Assembly: GCF_009931435.1 (NCBI RefSeq)
Contig: NZ_CP043414.1
Length of the DNA stretch: 64,000 bases
Origin: Escherichia coli
GTDB taxonomy: Bacteria; Pseudomonadota; Gammaproteobacteria; Enterobacterales; Enterobacteriaceae
Reading direction: 5' to 3' (one strand)
Below the pieces are notes generated by a model. It had not been told where the DNA came from. It did no database searches and saw only the letters and a list, made by a program, of their open reading frames with translations. Both the position numbers and the translations under genes were made by a program. This document shows positions 2,420-50,724 of this stretch, in pieces. How positions within the stretch are numbered: the stretch's first letter is position 1; every line of letters begins with the position of its first letter.

Positions 2420-3369
2420 CCGTGTTCTCCCACGCTTTTTTGCTGATGCTTGTGGAACCACATTATCGGCACAATTAGCAGCAACAACATGATGATCGCC
2501 ACTGCCGAGGCCACCGGCCAGTCACGGTTGTTAAAGAACTCCTGCCACAGCACGCGTCCGATCATGATGCTATCCGGACCGCCGAGCAGCTCCGGGATTA
2601 CAAACTCTCCCACTGCCGGAATAAAAACCAGCATCGATCCGGCAATAATACCCCCTTTGGTGAGCGGCACGATCACAGTAAAGAATGTTTTCAGCGGTCG
2701 AGCGCCGAGATCCAGTGCCGCTTCCACCAGCGAATAATCAATACGAATCAAGGCGGTGTAGATCGGCAGCACCATAAACGGTACATAGGCATAAACAATG
2801 CCAATATAAACGGCCAGGTTTGTATGCAGAATGGTCAGCGGCTGGTCGATAACCCCCAGCCACAGCAGAAAATTATTCAGCACGCCGTTATTTTTTAATA
2901 TTCCCATCCAGGCATAAACGCGGATCAGAAACGAGGTCCACGACGGCAGGATCACCAGCAGCAATAAGATATTGCGGGTCGAAGGCTTACTGTGCGCCAC
3001 CGCCCACGCCAGCGGATAGCCGATCAGTAAACAACAAATTGTCGAAATCGCCGCTACCTGTAACGACTGGAGATATGCATCGAAATAGAGCGGATCGTCA
3101 GTCAGTTGCAGGAAATTACCAAGATTGAGGGTGATGGAAAGTTGCCCGTCAGCCCACTCCATCAGTTCGGTATAAGGTGGAATAGCGCGCGCCATCTCCG
3201 CCAGACTTATTTTAAAGACGATCAGAAATGGCAGCAGAAACAGCAAGATCAACCAGATATACGGCAACGCAATGACCAGTTTGCGCCCATGCTTCATTTG
3301 CAGCTGCGACAACCACAGCTTAAATCCGCCCGGCGGTTTCGACTGGGCAGCAGGTTCAAGTGTACTCAT
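2416..3369 (-). CDS. potH: Putrescine ABC transporter permease PotH
   Basis: 317-aa ORF with ABC permease EAA-like loop (EAALDLGARPLKTFF); operon position. Confidence 0.9.
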   Translation of the reverse strand: MSTLEPAAQSKPPGGFKLWLSQLQMKHGRKLVIALPYIWLILLFLLPFLIVFKISLAEMARAIPPYTELMEWADGQLSITLNLGNFLQLTDDPLYFDAYLQSLQVAAISTICCLLIGYPLAWAVAHSKPSTRNILLLLVILPSWTSFLIRVYAWMGILKNNGVLNNFLLWLGVIDQPLTILHTNLAVYIGIVYAYVPFMVLPIYTALIRIDYSLVEAALDLGARPLKTFFTVIVPLTKGGIIAGSMLVFIPAVGEFVIPELLGGPDSIMIGRVLWQEFFNNRDWPVASAVAIIMLLLLIVPIMWFHKHQQKSVGEHG

Positions 3370-40539: not shown

Positions 40540-41799
40540 ATGACTTTTACCTATGAGACACTGCCAACAGATGCGAAAACGGCTATCCGTAAGATGAAAG
40601 CGGAGCTGCGACAACAGATCGGCGATGTACAACAGGTCTTCGATAAACTCTCTGCAAAAATCGAAGCACGTGTAGCAGAAATAGACGCCCTCAAAGGGCA
40701 AGGATTACCGGTTTGGCCGGAAGTCCCATATAGCGACGTTGCAGCAGGTACAGTGAGTGAAGCCACGCGCAATGAAATTAAACGTCGCGGCTGTGCAGTA
40801 ATTAAAGGCCATTTCCCCCGCGAACAGGCACTGGCATGGGATCGCGCAATGCTTGACTATCTTGATGCCAATCATTTTGATGATGTTTATAAAGGTCCCG
40901 GCGACAGCTTCTTTGGATCGCTGGAGGCATCTCGTCCTGAAATCTACCCTATTTACTGGTCGCAGGCACAAATGCAGGCGCGACAAAGTGACAATATGGC
41001 GGCGCTGCAATCTTTCCTTAACCGCCTGTGGAAGTCTGAAAGCAACGGCAGGCAGTGGTTTGATCCCGATATTAGCGTGATCTATCCGGACAGGATCCGC
41101 CGCCGCCCACCAGGCACGACGTCTAAAGGTCTGGGTGCACACACTGATTCTGGGGCGCTGGAACGTTGGTTATTACCCGCTTATCAGCGTGTTTTTGCCC
41201 ATGTTTTCAACGGTAATGTCGACGATTACGATCCGTGGGATGCTGCATACCGTACTGATGTTGAAGAGTACACGGTAGATAACACCACAAAATGTTCGGT
41301 GTTCCGCACTTTTCAAGGCTGGACGGCGCTTTCCGATATGTTACCAGGACAGGGATTATTGCATGTGGTGCCAATCCCGGAAGCGATGGCGTATGTTTTA
41401 TTGCGCCCACTGCTGGATGACGTACCGGACGATGAGTTGTGTGGGGTCGCTCCTGGCAAAGTTCTGCCCATTTCAGAGAGATGGCATCCACTACTGATTA
41501 AAGCACTCACTTCCATTCCAGCTATTACAGCGGGGGATTCCGTCTGGTGGCACTGCGACGTGATCCACTCCGTCGCACCGGTAAATAATCAACAAGGCTG
41601 GGGGAATGTGATGTATATCCCTGCCGCGCCGATGTGTGAGAAAAACCGGGCTTATGCGCATAACGTCAGGAAAGCACTGGAAAAAGGGGCATCACCGGGC
41701 GATTTCCCTCGAGAAGATTATGAAGCAAACTGGGATGGCCGATTTACGCTGGATGATCTGAACATTCACGGTAAGCGCGCGCTGGGCATGGATGTTTGA
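40540..41799 (+). CDS. ybiU: YbiU (DUF1479 family protein)
   Basis: 419-aa ORF in the conserved position. Confidence 0.8.
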   Translation: MTFTYETLPTDAKTAIRKMKAELRQQIGDVQQVFDKLSAKIEARVAEIDALKGQGLPVWPEVPYSDVAAGTVSEATRNEIKRRGCAVIKGHFPREQALAWDRAMLDYLDANHFDDVYKGPGDSFFGSLEASRPEIYPIYWSQAQMQARQSDNMAALQSFLNRLWKSESNGRQWFDPDISVIYPDRIRRRPPGTTSKGLGAHTDSGALERWLLPAYQRVFAHVFNGNVDDYDPWDAAYRTDVEEYTVDNTTKCSVFRTFQGWTALSDMLPGQGLLHVVPIPEAMAYVLLRPLLDDVPDDELCGVAPGKVLPISERWHPLLIKALTSIPAITAGDSVWWHCDVIHSVAPVNNQQGWGNVMYIPAAPMCEKNRAYAHNVRKALEKGASPGDFPREDYEANWDGRFTLDDLNIHGKRALGMDV

Positions 41800-43859: not shown

Positions 43860-44780
43860 ATGAATATGAAATTGAAAACATTATTCGCAGCGGCCTTCGC
43901 TGTTGTCGGCTTTTGCAGTACCGCCTCTGCGGTAACTTATCCTCTGCCAACCGACGGGAGTCGCGTGGTTGGTCAGAATCAGGTGATCACCATTCCTGAA
44001 GGTAACACTCAGCCGCTGGAGTATTTTGCCGCCGAGTACCAGATGGGTCTTTCCAACATGATGGAAGCTAACCCGGGTGTGGATACCTTCCTGCCGAAAG
44101 GCGGTACTGTACTGAACATTCCGCAGCAGCTGATCCTGCCGGATACCGTTCATGAAGGCATTGTCATTAACAGCGCAGAGATGCGTCTCTATTACTATCC
44201 GAAAGGCAGCAACACCGTTATCGTGCTGCCCATCGGCATTGGTCAGTTAGGCAAAGACACGCCTATCAACTGGACCACCAAAGTTGAGCGTAAGAAAGCA
44301 GGCCCGACCTGGACGCCGACCGCAAAAATGCACGCAGAGTACCGCGCTGCGGGCGAACCGCTTCCGGCTGTCGTTCCGGCAGGTCCGGATAACCCGATGG
44401 GGCTGTATGCACTCTACATCGGTCGCCTGTACGCTATCCATGGCACCAACGCCAACTTCGGTATCGGTCTGCGTGTAAGTCATGGCTGTGTGCGTCTGCG
44501 TAACGAAGACATCAAATTCCTGTTCGAGAAAGTACCGGTCGGTACTCGCGTACAGTTTATTGATGAGCCGGTAAAAGCGACCACCGAGCCTGACGGCAGC
44601 CGTTATATTGAAGTCCATAACCCGCTGTCTACCACCGAAGCCCAGTTTGAAGGTCAGGAAATTGTGCCAATTACCCTGACCAAGAGCGTGCAGACAGTAA
44701 CTGGTCAGCCTGATGTTGACCAGGTTGTTCTGGATGAAGCGATCAAAAATCGTTCCGGGATGCCGGTTCGTCTGAATTAA
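43860..44780 (+). CDS. ldtB: L,D-transpeptidase LdtB (YbiS)
   Basis: 306-aa; signal peptide; catalytic SHGCVRL motif. Confidence 0.9.
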
Positions 44781-44794
44781 TCGTCAAAACGTAA

Positions 44795-44830
44795 AACAGA
44801 GGCGGACTCATCATCCGCCTTTTTTATTTG
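44795..44830. terminator. Hairpin plus T-run between convergent ldtB and ybiR
   Basis: aggcggactcatcatccgcct followed by tttttattt. Confidence 0.6.
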
Positions 44831-44837
44831 CCAGACC

Positions 44838-45956
44838 CTACCAGGCCGGGAGCATAACGAATAAAACGTATCCCACCAGCGCCGCCCACAACAGCATCGG
44901 TATCGAATAAAGATGAAAACGCCACCAGATACGGCGATCGTTCGCCATCCGTAATGCAATCAAATTTGCCAGCGATCCGGGTAATAAACCAAAGCCACCG
45001 ACGTTTACCGCCCATGCCAGTAATAAAGACGGTGGCACATAATTGAGGAGCAAAATCGTGCTCGGCACATTACTGATCACCTGCGATAAACCAATTGCCG
45101 TTAACCATAATCCGGGTTCGGATAAATGGCTCACATTGCTCAACACGCCCTGCAAAGCTGGCAGTTGGGTCAGCAAATGGACGTCGATAAACATCGCCAT
45201 AAATACCAGCAGCAGCGTCCAGTCCACGCTGATCACCACGCGACGAGCCAGCAGCGCAAAGCCCGCCGCTACAATCACCAGTCCCCACAGCTCTTGTTTT
45301 AACTCCAGCGCCGTCAGAAAGACGATATACAGCCCCAGACAACTCCACACCAGCCGCGGTTTCCACTCAGGTGTTTGCGCCCCCGTATGATATTGCAGCG
45401 CCTTTCCAGGGAAACAACACCAGCACAGTAGCAGGAGTGTCAGCATCATTGCGCCAGCCAGCGGTGCCATTTGGGCAATAAACCCGGCAAACGAAAGACC
45501 AGAACGACCCCAGATAAGAATATTTTGCGGGTTGCCAATCGGCGTCAGTAGCGAACCCGCATTGACTGCCAGCGCCTCAAAAATAATCAGTCGATTAACC
45601 GGGATCTCACACAGTCTTTTTAGCGTGATGGTCAGCGGAACAACTATAAACAGCGCGACATCGTTGGTCAGAAAGGTAGAAAGTAGCGCCGCCGCCAGCA
45701 CCATAAACATCGCCAGCCGTCGCTCCGTAGCAAAGCGGCGCACCATTTTGCGCCCCAGCACATCAAAATAACCGCTTAACTCCACACCTTTGGTCAGCAG
45801 CATCAGACCGCTTAAGGTGATGATGGTGTGCCAGTCGATAGCAGCAGGCCAGGATTTCGGTGCAAAGGGAACAAAAAAACTTAATCCGATGCCAACAAGA
45901 ATTAATAACTGAAAAAAACGATCGCCTTGCAGCGTGCGTAAAAAAGGCAGGCTCAT
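44838..45956 (-). CDS. ybiR: Putative anion transporter YbiR
   Basis: 372-aa polytopic membrane protein. Confidence 0.85.
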
Positions 45957-46420
45957 TTGGCACCGTGTTTCTGGGTAAACAAACGAAAGGCATCCAGCGT
46001 CTCTTCACTAACATGGTGCTCCATGCCTTCCGCGTCGCGACGGGCGATTTCCGGACTGACGCCCAACACCAACAAGAAATTTTCGACTATCTGATGTCGC
46101 TCGCGGCTTTCCTGCGCCAGTTTCTCTCCTTCTGCCGTTAAAAACACGCCACGCCAGGGGATCATTTCAATCAGCCCCATGGTTGCCAGTCGTTTGAGCA
46201 TTTTAGCCACCGTCGGTTGCGAAACGCCCAGACGAGCAGCCATGTCCACCTGACGAGCTTCCCCCACTTCCCTGATCAAGTCAGAAATCAGCTCAACGTA
46301 ATCATCAATAAGCTCGCGCCGGTGTGCCTCTCTGACCTGGCGGAACCCTTCAACGTGCTCTTCCACATTCACTAACTGCGTCACTTTTTTTGCTGTTGGC
46401 GTACCTGCGCGACGACTCAT
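45953..46420 (-). CDS. mntR: Manganese-responsive transcriptional regulator MntR (DtxR family)
   Basis: 155-aa [43 protein letters not shown]; 4-nt overlap with ybiR. Confidence 0.9.
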
Positions 46421-46511
46421 TGTGCTTCCTCATTATGGTGACGCATACATAGCGTTCTCATTTCGTGCGCACATTGTAAACCAGAGTTGCGAAGGTACAA
46501 AAAATTAACGT

Positions 46512-46546
46512 TTTAGCAATAGCTATATAATATAGCCATTGCTAAA
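46512..46546. promoter_or_regulatory. 35-bp near-perfect palindrome about 95 bp upstream of mntR; candidate operator
   Basis: tttagcaatagctatat-a-atatagccattgctaaa, 17-bp arms with one mismatch, read directly; centre is TATA-rich. Confidence 0.4.
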
Positions 46547-46824
46547 TACATAAAATCAAATAAAATCATAATGTTAACAAAACAAAAAAAATAATCAATG
46601 TCGCAAAAATGTCTCACAAAACAAAAGCCATAACTTATTTGCTTGTTTTTTTATAGTGTCAGTATTAATCTAGTATATCAAAATGTTATCACTTCAATTA
46701 TTCTCTGCTTAACATTTATTTAAGAAATAATATTTTTAAGCTCTTTAAAAAAACCTTAAATAACGCTGATAGTTTCTTAGGAAAACTTAACGATAGTGGT
46801 AAATTAATCCCAAAGGACTAAAAA

Positions 46825-48060
46825 ATGGTATTAAGTAACTGTATTCAATGTCAGTCATGCAAATTTATATATAGAGTTAGGGTTGGTATTGGGTTTGATA
46901 AATACCAAAGACATTATATGGACTGTTTTGAGTGTAATATTCCTATTGTTTTTGCTATACGAACAGACCCACCAAATGCTTATCTTGAAGCGGAAGAAAA
47001 CTGCCTAATTGTTGAACATAGTACAGACCACAAGGTTGTTAACTTCCATCCGGGATGTGCTTTTAATAAAGATGAGATACATCAGTCACTGATATTCCCA
47101 TCTATTGAATTGACACAAATGATTCATAAACATATGAGGATGCCGAAAGGACAACGCCTTATAAGTGCCTCTCATCAATTTGATATTCCCAACGCCCCCT
47201 CCAAATGGAATTATTTAAAATCAATAATAAAACTTATTAATGAAGGAAAGAAAGACAAAGCTCAGAATACAGCAAAGCTTTATATGCAATCAAGAAATAA
47301 AGAGTTACCTTTGTATAATGAAGATGATAGCTATTCCTCTACATCTCTAATCTATGAGTTTTTAGATTGGCTTTTCTATCCTCGAGTACATGATATAGCC
47401 GATTCCATTAAAAAAACAATTGATGACCTTAAAGAACAAAATTTGTTGGATGATTTTTACGCTTTCTATAAAGAAAATTTAAAATCCGAAAATGAACAAA
47501 GATACATCAATATAATATCAGATTTCATGGCTCGTAGAGATCATTTCGGGCAGTTAATCTATTACGCAAGAATTAACAACGATGCAATAGACGATAAGAT
47601 AATTAGCTCTAAGAACTTCGATAATGTAAGAAATTATTATGGAGATGCTTATGAAAGTCTGACATCTAACATGACTATTTTAGCATGTATTAATAACATC
47701 GTCAGTGGAAGGGCATTCGATCAGTTCAAGCAAATGACATTGAATAAATACATAAAGGATGTAAATAAAGACAGTAAAACAAACCCATTTAAGGACAACC
47801 CTTTATTTAGCGCATTTTGTGAAGATGATTTAGAGTCAGCAATAAGAAATGGTTCTCATCATGCCTCTATATGGCATGACGGAGAGAGTATTCGATATAG
47901 AAGTGGCGGAACTGGCGCAGAAAGAGAAATAAGCTATACAAAATATATTCACCTTTGTAATAAGCTAACTCTTAAAATCGTAAGTTTGTGGTTAATTGAA
48001 CTTCATATCCAACATATTTACGAAAAAGATGATAATAGCTATGCATGGTTTCATCTTTAA
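46825..48060 (+). CDS. Hypothetical protein, 411 aa, AT-rich cargo gene with N-terminal Cys cluster (possible zinc ribbon); function unknown
   Basis: Long ORF with AAGGA RBS 8 nt upstream of ATG; sampled lines are about 28-37 percent G+C versus about 50 percent in flanking genes; N-terminus CIQCQSC...CFEC; rest rich in K/N/D/E/Y; no family recognised by eye. Confidence 0.6.
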   Translation: MVLSNCIQCQSCKFIYRVRVGIGFDKYQRHYMDCFECNIPIVFAIRTDPPNAYLEAEENCLIVEHSTDHKVVNFHPGCAFNKDEIHQSLIFPSIELTQMIHKHMRMPKGQRLISASHQFDIPNAPSKWNYLKSIIKLINEGKKDKAQNTAKLYMQSRNKELPLYNEDDSYSSTSLIYEFLDWLFYPRVHDIADSIKKTIDDLKEQNLLDDFYAFYKENLKSENEQRYINIISDFMARRDHFGQLIYYARINNDAIDDKIISSKNFDNVRNYYGDAYESLTSNMTILACINNIVSGRAFDQFKQMTLNKYIKDVNKDSKTNPFKDNPLFSAFCEDDLESAIRNGSHHASIWHDGESIRYRSGGTGAEREISYTKYIHLCNKLTLKIVSLWLIELHIQHIYEKDDNSYAWFHL

Positions 48061-48116
48061 GTTAAATATTTGATTCACTAATTTTCAGTTTCTACTCACT
48101 CTAATGATTGTACATA

Positions 48117-48143
48117 GCCCGCACCATTCTTGGTATTGCGGGC
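48117..48143 (+). terminator. Weak hairpin downstream of the 411-aa gene
   Basis: gcccgca-13 nt loop-tgcgggc followed by ttt. Confidence 0.3.
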
Positions 48144-48553
48144 TTTCAGCCGTTTATATCACTTAACGCAATTAGATCATGCAACTTTACACAATATGGT
48201 TTTTTCTATTATTTTTCAGTTGGTTGAATGGATTAGCCATCACACAACTGATCTATAAAACTGAAAAACACTGAAATTCTTTTCAATCTTTTCAGTGGCA
48301 GCTCTCCGGCAAACCGCCAACAGTGGCGCAGCCTGACGCTCACGTTTGTAGAAAAATAAAACTGAAAAATTTTATCGATCCAGAAACCGCAGGCGGGTGC
48401 GGTGTAGTGCCATTTTGGTCTGCGAAAGATTTATTTTGTCAGTGCGTAGTGCCGTCAGCGCAACGTGACAGCACAGATCCTTTTGTGGTGTTACGGGATG
48501 GTGGTCAGAGAAAAAAAGTGCTTAGAATGCTTCTGGTTGCGTGAGAATACAGG

Positions 48554-48579
48554 TATAAAAAACCCGCACTAGGCGGGTA
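48554..48579 (-). terminator. Rho-independent terminator of the 84-aa gene (minus strand)
   Basis: Plus strand reads aaaaaa-acccgc-actag-gcgggt; on the minus strand this is a perfect 6-bp GC stem followed by a T-run, directly after the ORF stop. Confidence 0.55.
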
Positions 48580-48589
48580 CTAAAGAGAG

Positions 48590-48844
48590 CTATTTCATTT
48601 CGTTAAGTGCGTACGCACCTCTATCAGTGAGTGCAAAAAAGCCATCCCTTACGCTGGGTTGAATCAACCCAAACATACGCAATTCACCCAGTATTTGTTC
48701 TGAGCGACTACCAGCACCAGAATGCTTAATTAGTGCAAATTCAGGCTGTGCTTCTTCACTGAGCAAAGTCAATATTTTGACAATGGCGTCACGTTTGCTT
48801 TCATCTGCAATGTCATGGTATGGATTGATGGAACAGGTTACCAT
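48590..48844 (-). CDS. Hypothetical small protein, 84 aa, monocistronic
   Basis: ORF MVTCSINPYHDIADESKRDAIVKILTLLSEEAQPEF... bounded by terminator-like hairpins on both sides; separate transcription unit from the tail operon. Confidence 0.45.
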   Translation of the reverse strand: MVTCSINPYHDIADESKRDAIVKILTLLSEEAQPEFALIKHSGAGSRSEQILGELRMFGLIQPSVRDGFFALTDRGAYALNEMK

Positions 48845-48984
48845 AGTGTTTTCCTTTTTTTATGAAAATCATATTTTACCATATCCCAACACGCCATATT
48901 GAAGTGCTCAATATTCACTCACCCTAAAAGGTATCTGTTGTGCAATCAGTTCCCCTACTCCCAGGTATCGCGGTTAAACAGGTA

Positions 48985-49010
48985 TCAAAAAGCCGCATTA
49001 TGCGCGGGCT
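48985..49010 (-). terminator. Candidate terminator of the prophage tail operon
   Basis: Imperfect GC hairpin (gcccgcgcataatgcggc on the minus strand) followed by a T-run, a few bases after the stop of the 567-aa gene. Confidence 0.4.
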
Positions 49011-49020
49011 GATGGGATGA

Positions 49021-50724
49021 TCAGGCGATGATTTTCTGGTACTTACTTCGGGTCTGTCCTGCTTTCTCTGCTGTCTGGGTAAATGCTCCGGCATTGGTTG
49101 GCGTACCAACACTGGGGTGCGAATGACTCGCACATTGCTGCGCCAGCTCTGCCAGTAAATCAATGGTGTCCAACATCATGGTCAGCGTGTTTACACTCTC
49201 ACTGCCGATATGGATGGTTGGCCCCATAATCTGCTGACCGCCCGATGCTACCGATTTGCGTAATGCAGTAATCTTTTCAGTCAGGCTTTCGCCAACCTCC
49301 ACGGCTACAGCACCGCCCACTTTAATGGACTGCTGTCCTGCTATGTCCGTTTCTTCGTTTCCTTCAATGCTGGCCAGCCTGTTACCTTTCACGGCCTGGC
49401 TAAAATCCCCGGCACTGACCTGCTGAATGGCTCCGGCTAGCAGGGTGGCGGTCCCCACCACAATGGTTTTATCCGTGGCTTTAACCGTGGTTTCGCGACT
49501 GACCAGATCACGTTGTTCTGTATCTGCTTTTACCGTTCGCACCATCGATGTTTCACTGATGGTCTGATCGGTCTGCCTTACCCAGTCACCCGCCAGAGTC
49601 ACCCTCTGGGATACTTCTTCCCGCTGCTGCTGCAATTGCTCACCGGGTTTAACGTCCGGCAGACTGGTGCCATCCGGTAGCGTCTGCCTGATAAAAGGTT
49701 TATCCGGTCTGCCTCCTGTGAATGCGACCTCAACCAGCGTCCCTTCTGGCGGGAACTGAAACATACCTGAATCATTCCCGGCCATTGGTACCGGCAGCGG
49801 CACCGCTGAATAAACAGGCGTCTGATTGTCCGGATTTCCGTCTGCGTCAAGCAGCTGCACGTCCACGGCGTAACGTGGCCGGAAGGGATCGGCAAAGTTA
49901 CCGCTTTTTACCGGCTCTGAATGCGCCACGACTCTGGCCATCTTTGGCAAATGAAGCCCGGATGCCAGTTCCGGGTAATGGCTTTCAATCTGCCGTTGCG
50001 CTGGTGTTTTCTGCAAAGGTTTACCCGTTGCGCGGTTTCTCGGCGTCCATGTGATCGCCATCGTGTCATTAGTCAGGTGAACTTTAGTCACGCGTTCACC
50101 GTTCATCTCCACCCCTGGCCGCATAGTCTGGATCACTGGTAATGTCACAGAGTTACCGCCAGCAGCCCCCTGGCTGAACTCTGACGGGATTTCTACTGGA
50201 CGACCGGCAAACAATGACTTTTCTGCGCCGCCGACGTAAAGCGAACCATCAGGTAACTGGTACCAGATGTAATCCTGGATACTGAACGCCCTGCCCAGAT
50301 TGTTCAGCAACTGATAACCAGTACCGTTATGGGTAAAATGTGGGATGGGGGTATCGCTGTACTGTGCATCAGGCACACTGACCGTGATCCCGCTGTTTTC
50401 TTCCAGCCAGCCCGCAATTTCACGCAAAGTCGGGTGTTGAAACGAACATGGCCACATCCTTTCAAACACACCTACCAGCTCACGAATGAATAGGCGCTGA
50501 AAACCGTTTTCAGCGGGCTGCGATCGCTCCACATACCCCGTAAACCAGCGCAAAAGCAGATCGGTATACCCCACATCCAGCCGCACCAGTTTTCCGGTGT
50601 AATCGGTTGTTGTCTCTGCGGTGATGAAGCCCCGGCCGCAGCTGTTCAGCTCCAGTACCAGGCTGACATCCACCAGGTGAACTTCATCCGTTGAAAGGTA
50701 AAGACGTTTTACTGGTTTCATCAT
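49021..50724 (-). CDS. Phage baseplate hub/spike protein (gpD/VgrG-like), 567 aa
   Basis: Last gene of the tail operon; C-terminal third is a low-complexity V/T/G/S-rich repeat region typical of beta-helical spikes; call is by architecture and context only. Confidence 0.5.
   Translation of the reverse strand: MMKPVKRLYLSTDEVHLVDVSLVLELNSCGRGFITAETTTDYTGKLVRLDVGYTDLLLRWFTGYVERSQPAENGFQRLFIRELVGVFERMWPCSFQHPTLREIAGWLEENSGITVSVPDAQYSDTPIPHFTHNGTGYQLLNNLGRAFSIQDYIWYQLPDGSLYVGGAEKSLFAGRPVEIPSEFSQGAAGGNSVTLPVIQTMRPGVEMNGERVTKVHLTNDTMAITWTPRNRATGKPLQKTPAQRQIESHYPELASGLHLPKMARVVAHSEPVKSGNFADPFRPRYAVDVQLLDADGNPDNQTPVYSAVPLPVPMAGNDSGMFQFPPEGTLVEVAFTGGRPDKPFIRQTLPDGTSLPDVKPGEQLQQQREEVSQRVTLAGDWVRQTDQTISETSMVRTVKADTEQRDLVSRETTVKATDKTIVVGTATLLAGAIQQVSAGDFSQAVKGNRLASIEGNEETDIAGQQSIKVGGAVAVEVGESLTEKITALRKSVASGGQQIMGPTIHIGSESVNTLTMMLDTIDLLAELAQQCASHSHPSVGTPTNAGAFTQTAEKAGQTRSKYQKIIA

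Follow-up and report, generated by a model that had tools for sequence, protein, structure and literature searches.

The window analysed here, a stretch of 64,000 nucleotides from Escherichia coli (contig NZ_CP043414.1), runs from the chromosome into a P2-family prophage. Genes outside it were read from the annotation of an identical genome record, that of E. coli strain MFDS1016424 (100% identity). The prophage/chromosome junction lies in the mntR-mntS intergenic region (Table 1), and alignment to the empty K-12 site places the end of K-12 homology at 46547. The attR core sits in a 35-bp palindrome of this intergenic region (46512-46546), so that insertion breaks up what is probably a regulatory or terminator element upstream of mntS/rybA. 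The same 12-mer (TATAATATAGCC) is present at both ends of the element found in E. coli PSS-07. On the chromosomal side, a frameshifted IS621 (IS110-family) transposase gene is annotated in the identical record at ~40791-41770, between ybiU and ybiT. On the prophage side, a cargo gene occupies a position at which relatives carry different genes (a serine acetyltransferase, a DprA-type system, or sce7725/6). It is followed by an intergenic region, by an intrinsic terminator whose hairpin is also kept in ev015 and ESSI-2, and by an 84-aa gene; neither the 411-aa cargo protein nor the 84-aa protein matches a Pfam or PHROG family. The 84-aa gene is missing from ESSI2_ev015, ev129 and ESSI-2, so that cargo is inserted on this other side of the proposed cos site too. 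P2-family tail genes follow to the right on the minus strand. The rest of the prophage, partly past the window, comprises the gpM-type small terminase subunit, the capsid, and the large terminase subunit and portal genes annotated just past the window, along with an Ogr-like gene, a replication endonuclease, a Dam methylase, cII, a repressor and an integrase; mntS comes next. This ESSI-2/Quadragintavirus-like (P2-family) prophage between mntR and mntS looks intact.

Table 1. Features of the locus, in window positions; offsets are counted from the start of the cohesive-end block, 48392.
Feature	Position	Strand	Remarks
ldtB, ybiR, mntR	43860-46420		left of the prophage junction
attR core TATAATATAGCC	46526-46537		prophage/chromosome junction, mntR-mntS intergenic region
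Cargo gene, 411 aa	46825-48060	+	between attR and the proposed cos site; variable hotspot position
Distal repeat array	48258-48297		left arm of the proposed cos site; holds the inverted repeat
Central G+C-rich block CCGCCAnnnnTGGCGCnGnCTGnCG / CCAGnnnnnGGCGCGGnCTGGCG	48316-48339		in all cos classes compared; high information in class A
73-aa ORF	48323-48544	+	spurious; spans the proposed cos cut
Proximal left arm	48345-48373		GTTTGTAG, an A-tract and the fifth word (TGAAA at 48363, offset -29)
GATC (Dam site)	48377-48380		offset -15; conserved
Cohesive-end (nicking) block GGCGGGTGCGGTGTAGTGC	48392-48410		aligned to the 19-nt cohesive end of P2; cut predicted
Right arm of the proposed cos site CATTTTGGTCTGCGAAAGATTTATTTTGTC	48411-48445		class A information high to about 48441
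Intrinsic terminator	48562-48578	-	from a terminator scan; stops leftward transcription before the proposed cos site
84-aa gene	48590-48844	-	between the right arm and the last tail gene
gpM-type terminase small subunit	63224-63928	-	PF05944, E = 1.9e-39; phrog_74; annotated gpM in the identical record

The intergenic region downstream of the cargo gene had been singled out in a preliminary description for its clustered CTGAAAA words (48230-48380) and for a cactgaaa...tttcagtg inverted repeat, and both are borne out. Exact CTGAAAA is found at 48261-48267 and 48362-48368 on the plus strand and at 48289-48295 on the minus strand, with a CTGAAAT at 48271-48277 (plus strand). The 8-bp inverted repeat is formed by CACTGAAA (48269-48276) and TTTCAGTG (48290-48297), separated by a 13-nt spacer. 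Two extra CTGAAAA lie farther left on the minus strand, at 48213-48219 and 48082-48088. That such words might be no more than low-complexity DNA that arose by chance gains some credit from the genome itself, in which CTGAAAA is over-represented (43 per 64 kb, as against 11.3 in shuffles). However, 48230-48380 holds four CTGAAA on the two strands where 0.23 are expected, a count that none of 5000 dinucleotide-preserving shuffles of this same stretch reached, and it is the sole place in the window with at least three CTGAAAA within 156 bp.

For comparison, the neighbourhoods of the exact cut core were drawn from a viral contig collection. The resulting 120 distinct sequences split into class A (n = 105) and class B (n = 15, including the Salmonella phages SI7, SW3 and SW5). 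A core of ~170 bp is conserved, about 48256-48440. Its distal part, which apart from the cut block contains the highest-information columns of the class A alignment, carries TGAAA at 48262 and 48272 and TTTCA at 48281 and 48290 (offsets -130, -120, -111 and -102); the four copies are about one helical turn apart, the first two pointing rightward and the last two leftward. A motif search in relatives, which the preliminary description had recommended, recovers the words at fixed offsets in the 105 distinct class A sequences: TGAAA at -130 (89%), -120 (83%) and -29 (95%), and TTTCA at -111 (87%) and -102 (90%). An unbiased search for recurrent 5-mers at fixed positions returns the same words in each type of site, with TGAAA ranking top for class A. 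Farther to the left, a stretch at 48207-48226 (TTA..TTTCA....GTTA; in class B GTTAACCAnnnGGTTA; offsets of about -185 to -165) is weakly conserved and is seen in satellites as well; conservation beyond the array suggests that the arm may reach farther left than marked in Table 1.

Such position-specific conservation among 105 relatives is not what chance would leave. An open reading frame of 73 codons can also be drawn across the region, but the doubt already cast on it was justified: its homologues have a start codon in only 25 of 105 cases and in-frame stops in 59, and substitutions are spread evenly over the three codon positions (1588/1606/1578). Missing starts, in-frame stops and the lack of a third-position bias (n = 105) thus rule out a coding role. 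Rfam covariance models gave no match at E <= 1 between 45500 and 50000, which speaks against a small RNA. Whether put down to chance, to a gene or to an RNA, the region is scarcely explained in this way, and we leave these readings almost no weight.

The inverted repeat might be thought to fold. The distal 35 bp (48261-48295) do form a nested quasi-palindrome, with a single-stranded DNA fold of -7 kcal/mol (z = -3.6). This fold is modest, almost no compensatory changes are found in the arms among the 105 relatives, and the outer two pairs of the 8-bp repeat are often unpaired in them. A hairpin or cruciform was therefore rejected, and the absence of compensatory changes makes the inverted repeat better read as a symmetric arrangement of sites. 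Judging from the alignment, conservation applies to the word in each arm and not to the pairing.

The same layout returns in other cos lineages with a different word. Class B shares the cut block and the central G+C-rich block with class A, and has TTGCAA/TGCAA in place of TGAAA, TGCAA being found at -130, -120, -101 and -29 (at this last offset in 100%). In P2/P4-type sites (n = 109), TGCAT stands at -124, -111, -101 and -29; the -29 copy is present in 94%, and the distal copies are less constant (39-69%). The 186-type sites (n = 110) carry TGCAT at these same four offsets, plus ATGCA at -121 and -36. P2, 186 and P4 share helpers, and they have the same word. Unlike the repeats, the central block is constant across lineages, being kept in class A, in class B, and in the P2/P4-type and 186-type consensus. 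The repeat offsets agree with those of P2 in one register of the cohesive-end block only. On sequence comparison, then, the architecture is family-wide and the identity of the word is lineage-specific. Host genera overlap between classes, A and B both occurring in Salmonella and A and the P2 type both in E. coli, and the word differences are thus not explained by a host factor. A position-locked, lineage-specific word array of this kind may have gone undescribed so far: in a literature search that extended to sources other than Ziermann and Calendar (1990), no account of repeated words in P2-type cos was found.

Five Peduoviridae phage records end inside the element. In the linear record of Cronobacter phage ESSI-2, each terminus carries the 15-mer GCGGGTGCGGTGTAG, and an identical 15-mer is present in the window at 48393-48407. 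The virion-derived assemblies ESSI2_ev015, ev129 and ev040 and the record of Salmonella phage SW5 all break within the cohesive-end block, and ev015, ev129 and ev040 carry a sequencing adapter at the break. The public records NC_049395, NC_049394 and LR597638 retain adapter sequence, which we take to be of the Nextera type, at or between genome ends; in the extracts used here it is seen in L008 at 1-48, in L013 at both ends, and in L012 at about 3152-3192. Virion DNA therefore ends within the element in close relatives with an identical core, and the cut position given in Table 1 is the one predicted by transfer from them. The mature genome order in those phages is end, tail genes, terminase, int, attP, cargo, end. 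Once integrated, such a genome has cos flanked by the cargo on one side and the tail genes on the other, which is the arrangement seen in the window; the left arm becomes the right end of the mature genome, adjoining the cargo hotspot.

The element is not confined to phages. It is present in 481 of 5426 complete E. coli genomes: a few copies belong to full prophages at mntR-mntS, others to remnants, and most to ~10-kb satellites at tRNA-Arg, where it lies between an Ogr/Delta gene and variable cargo beside the integrase. One of the remnants, the 8.5-kb prophage remnant of E. coli PSS-07 (L003, 2387-11023), occupies the same mntR-mntS site. The early region from integrase to exonuclease is still present in it, along with the cos element and a DprA-type cargo; the virion genes are all gone, as is the replication gene, and one of the deletion ends falls in the right arm of cos. 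The tRNA-Arg satellite (E. coli SaT040, L004 1-10500; also L006 and L007) is found in ~450 of the 5426 genomes, with ST131 well represented among these. It has a P2-family major capsid homologue of its own (PF05125), 48% identical to the capsid of ESSI2_ev015 and 25% to P2 gpN, together with an Icd-like gene, a DUF927 primase, Ogr/Delta, a class-A cos and variable cargo; for Sid and Psu, it yielded no match. At the DNA level, the homology between satellite and phage is limited to the cos element and a capsid gene, and this sharing is the signature expected of a packaging signal. Satellites retain the exact word of their own phage class, and keep the right arm in part, to about 48422-48440.

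This distribution bears on what the preliminary description had suggested, namely an array of protein-binding sites of the operator or iteron kind, or else the remnant of an attachment or recombination site at the prophage boundary. Short repeated words near a prophage end, within 2 kb of its boundary, are indeed what arm-type integrase sites look like. However, the att core and the end of K-12 homology put the array 1.7 kb inside the prophage, with a variable 1.2-kb cargo gene between. The array also recurs in satellites that have different integrases and are inserted at tRNA-Arg. Arm-type sites are expected within about 150 bp of the core and with the cognate integrase, and the array conforms to neither. 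The comparison with the empty K-12 site, also recommended at the outset, settles the matter in the same sense, since the array has no alignment there. An attachment-site remnant is accordingly refuted for all practical purposes. As for operators and iterons, phased short repeats with a palindrome do resemble them, but the array is common to elements whose repressors are unrelated, as are their replication proteins (the phage has a replication endonuclease and the satellites a DUF927 primase), and it lies ~20 kb from the phage replication endonuclease gene. Since the repressors, replicases and integrases that accompany the array are unrelated from element to element, all these proposals fail, and we see hardly any chance for an operator or an origin. 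What stands of the protein-binding suggestion, on comparative evidence, is a conserved array of a type typically bound by proteins.

A transcription control region common to phages and satellites, such as an Ogr/Delta late promoter or a cargo promoter, would account for the sharing in another way. Phages and satellites alike encode Ogr/Delta-family activators, and the satellites have the element immediately downstream of the Ogr/Delta gene. The late promoter of P2 is marked by the dyad TGT-N12-ACA, but this is missing from the class A, class B and P2 consensus. Moreover, cargo genes occur in either orientation, virion DNA ends within the element, and a promoter scan of 2.8 kb (46300-49100) gave 11 hits for 10.1 expected, that is, chance level. 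Control of transcription is therefore a very improbable function for the array.

Virion ends, genome layout, sharing with satellites and the known P2/P4 cos core all converge on cos, with the array as its left arm. We therefore consider it highly probable that 48258-48445 is the cos site of the prophage, and propose that its words contact terminase, likely a gpM-type oligomer. The same element codes for the matching P2-type terminase, as homologues of gpM and gpP. Terminase would nick both strands within the cohesive-end block, leaving cohesive ends of 15-19 nt. The five words (TGAAA, mostly CTGAAA[A/T]) would be its contact points, made most likely by an oligomer of the gpM-type small subunit, which would hold the left arm and bring the nuclease to the cohesive-end block. 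Which DNAs a given terminase packages would depend on the identity of the word, and satellites would copy the whole arm so as to be packaged. We infer that the words are read by terminase and not by some other protein, and that they determine specificity: since the word changes at all positions together, one co-evolving protein probably reads every copy. The small subunits of classes A and B are 56% identical, in a range of 55-64% for the other virion proteins, and their N-termini are similar once the start codon of SI7 is corrected. The small subunit being no more diverged than other virion proteins, these figures give no specific signal of co-variation. A search for solved structures of this small-subunit family found none. 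The minimal functional cos of P2 is reportedly ~125 bp, which might leave out the distal copies.

A different mode of action can be considered for the same cos site, in which the A/T-rich words act through intrinsic curvature or through the host proteins IHF, HU or Fis. Lambda cos relies on IHF and bending, the words here lie in A-tracts about one helical turn apart, and the lack of special divergence in the small subunit is in keeping with this idea. Yet lineages infecting the same genera differ in the word at every position at once, the words found at the same offsets include TGCAT and TTGCAA, neither of which is an A-tract, and satellites hold the exact word of their own phage class. Curvature or host proteins as the main agent thus appear unlikely, but A/T-rich words could work partly by bending DNA alongside recognition by terminase.

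The cos sites of P2, 186 and P4 were treated by Ziermann and Calendar (1990, as cited in PMC9122126 and PMC9594776). A cos core is known to be common to P2 and P4, and cargo hotspots are known to adjoin cos (PMC9122126; PMC9594776). The element described here resembles them in several ways. Like the P2/P4 core, it has an AAACCGC flank and a central G+C block. Its short words are at offsets matching those of P2, 186 and P4 (about -124/-130, -111, -101 and -29). As in these phages, it is common to helper phages and satellites and adjoins a cargo hotspot, and its predicted reader is a P2-family terminase (gpM/gpP homologues). The cohesive-end blocks are in register, GGCGGGTGCGGTGTAGTGC here and GGCGAGGCGGGGAAAGCAC in P2, with 10 of 19 positions identical and 9 different. 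Other features set it apart from P2: the word is TGAAA and not TGCAT, the P2 hairpin just left of the cut (CCGCCCCGTGAAGCGGGCG) is absent, a GATC is present at -15, and cos lies between the tail genes and attP/int, whereas that of P2 lies between gene A/old-tin and the portal gene. The hotspot agrees with those described in 2022 (PMC9122126) in that cos has variable cargo, of either orientation, as its immediate neighbour, with a conserved gene or att site on the other side of the cargo. It differs from them in being placed between cos and the phage's own attP/int, and its 411-aa cargo has no known family.

In lambda, the R sites of cosB are bound by the small subunit gpNu1 and differ between lambda and phage 21. 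The resemblance is one of principle, several copies of a short, lineage-specific word beside a nicking site, which set packaging specificity in lambda and would do so here. Repeat number, spacing and side are different, and there is no homology of sequence or protein: the small subunit belongs to PF05944 (the P2 gpM family), and its words are unrelated to R sites.

The conserved GATC recalls yet another system. It is present at -15 in 64% of class A, in 87% of class B and in none of the P2 type, and phages of the classes that have it encode Dam-type methylases. Two other GATC are found in the region, at 48251-48254 and 48477-48480. Cleavage of P1 pac is controlled by Dam methylation (Sternberg and Coulby, 1990, as cited in PMC10359639). 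The likeness, a resemblance only, is that of a conserved GATC close to a cleavage site in a phage that encodes a Dam-type methylase, but here there is a single conserved GATC instead of clusters of hexamers, and cos packaging is not headful. These data hint that methylation might affect cos cleavage, as it does at P1 pac.

The element is thus of a known kind, an ordinary, previously unannotated P2-family cos site beside a cargo hotspot, and the modestly new point is its position-locked, word-swapped repeat array. An unannotated intergenic stretch gains a definite role as the packaging site of the prophage, and this identity explains why variable cargo adjoins the region. A further step can be proposed only tentatively, and the odds are somewhat against it: the word (TGAAA, TTGCAA or TGCAT) at five position-locked contacts may constitute a code that matches DNA to terminase, in which case satellites with TGAAA would be packaged only by ESSI-2/Quadragintavirus-like helpers and not by P2 or 186. 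A matching terminase is found in about 27 of the 5426 genomes, as against about 450 with the satellite. If the proposal is true, the capsid-encoding satellites that are common in E. coli, those of ST131 among them, would be tied to ESSI-2-like helpers that are rare as residents. The word comparison yields a simple, testable rule as to which satellites use which helper phages. It also provides a sequence signature by which cos, and cargo hotspots beside it, can be sought in P2-family prophages laid out differently from P2, and may possibly aid the design of cosmid delivery particles with orthogonal packaging signals.
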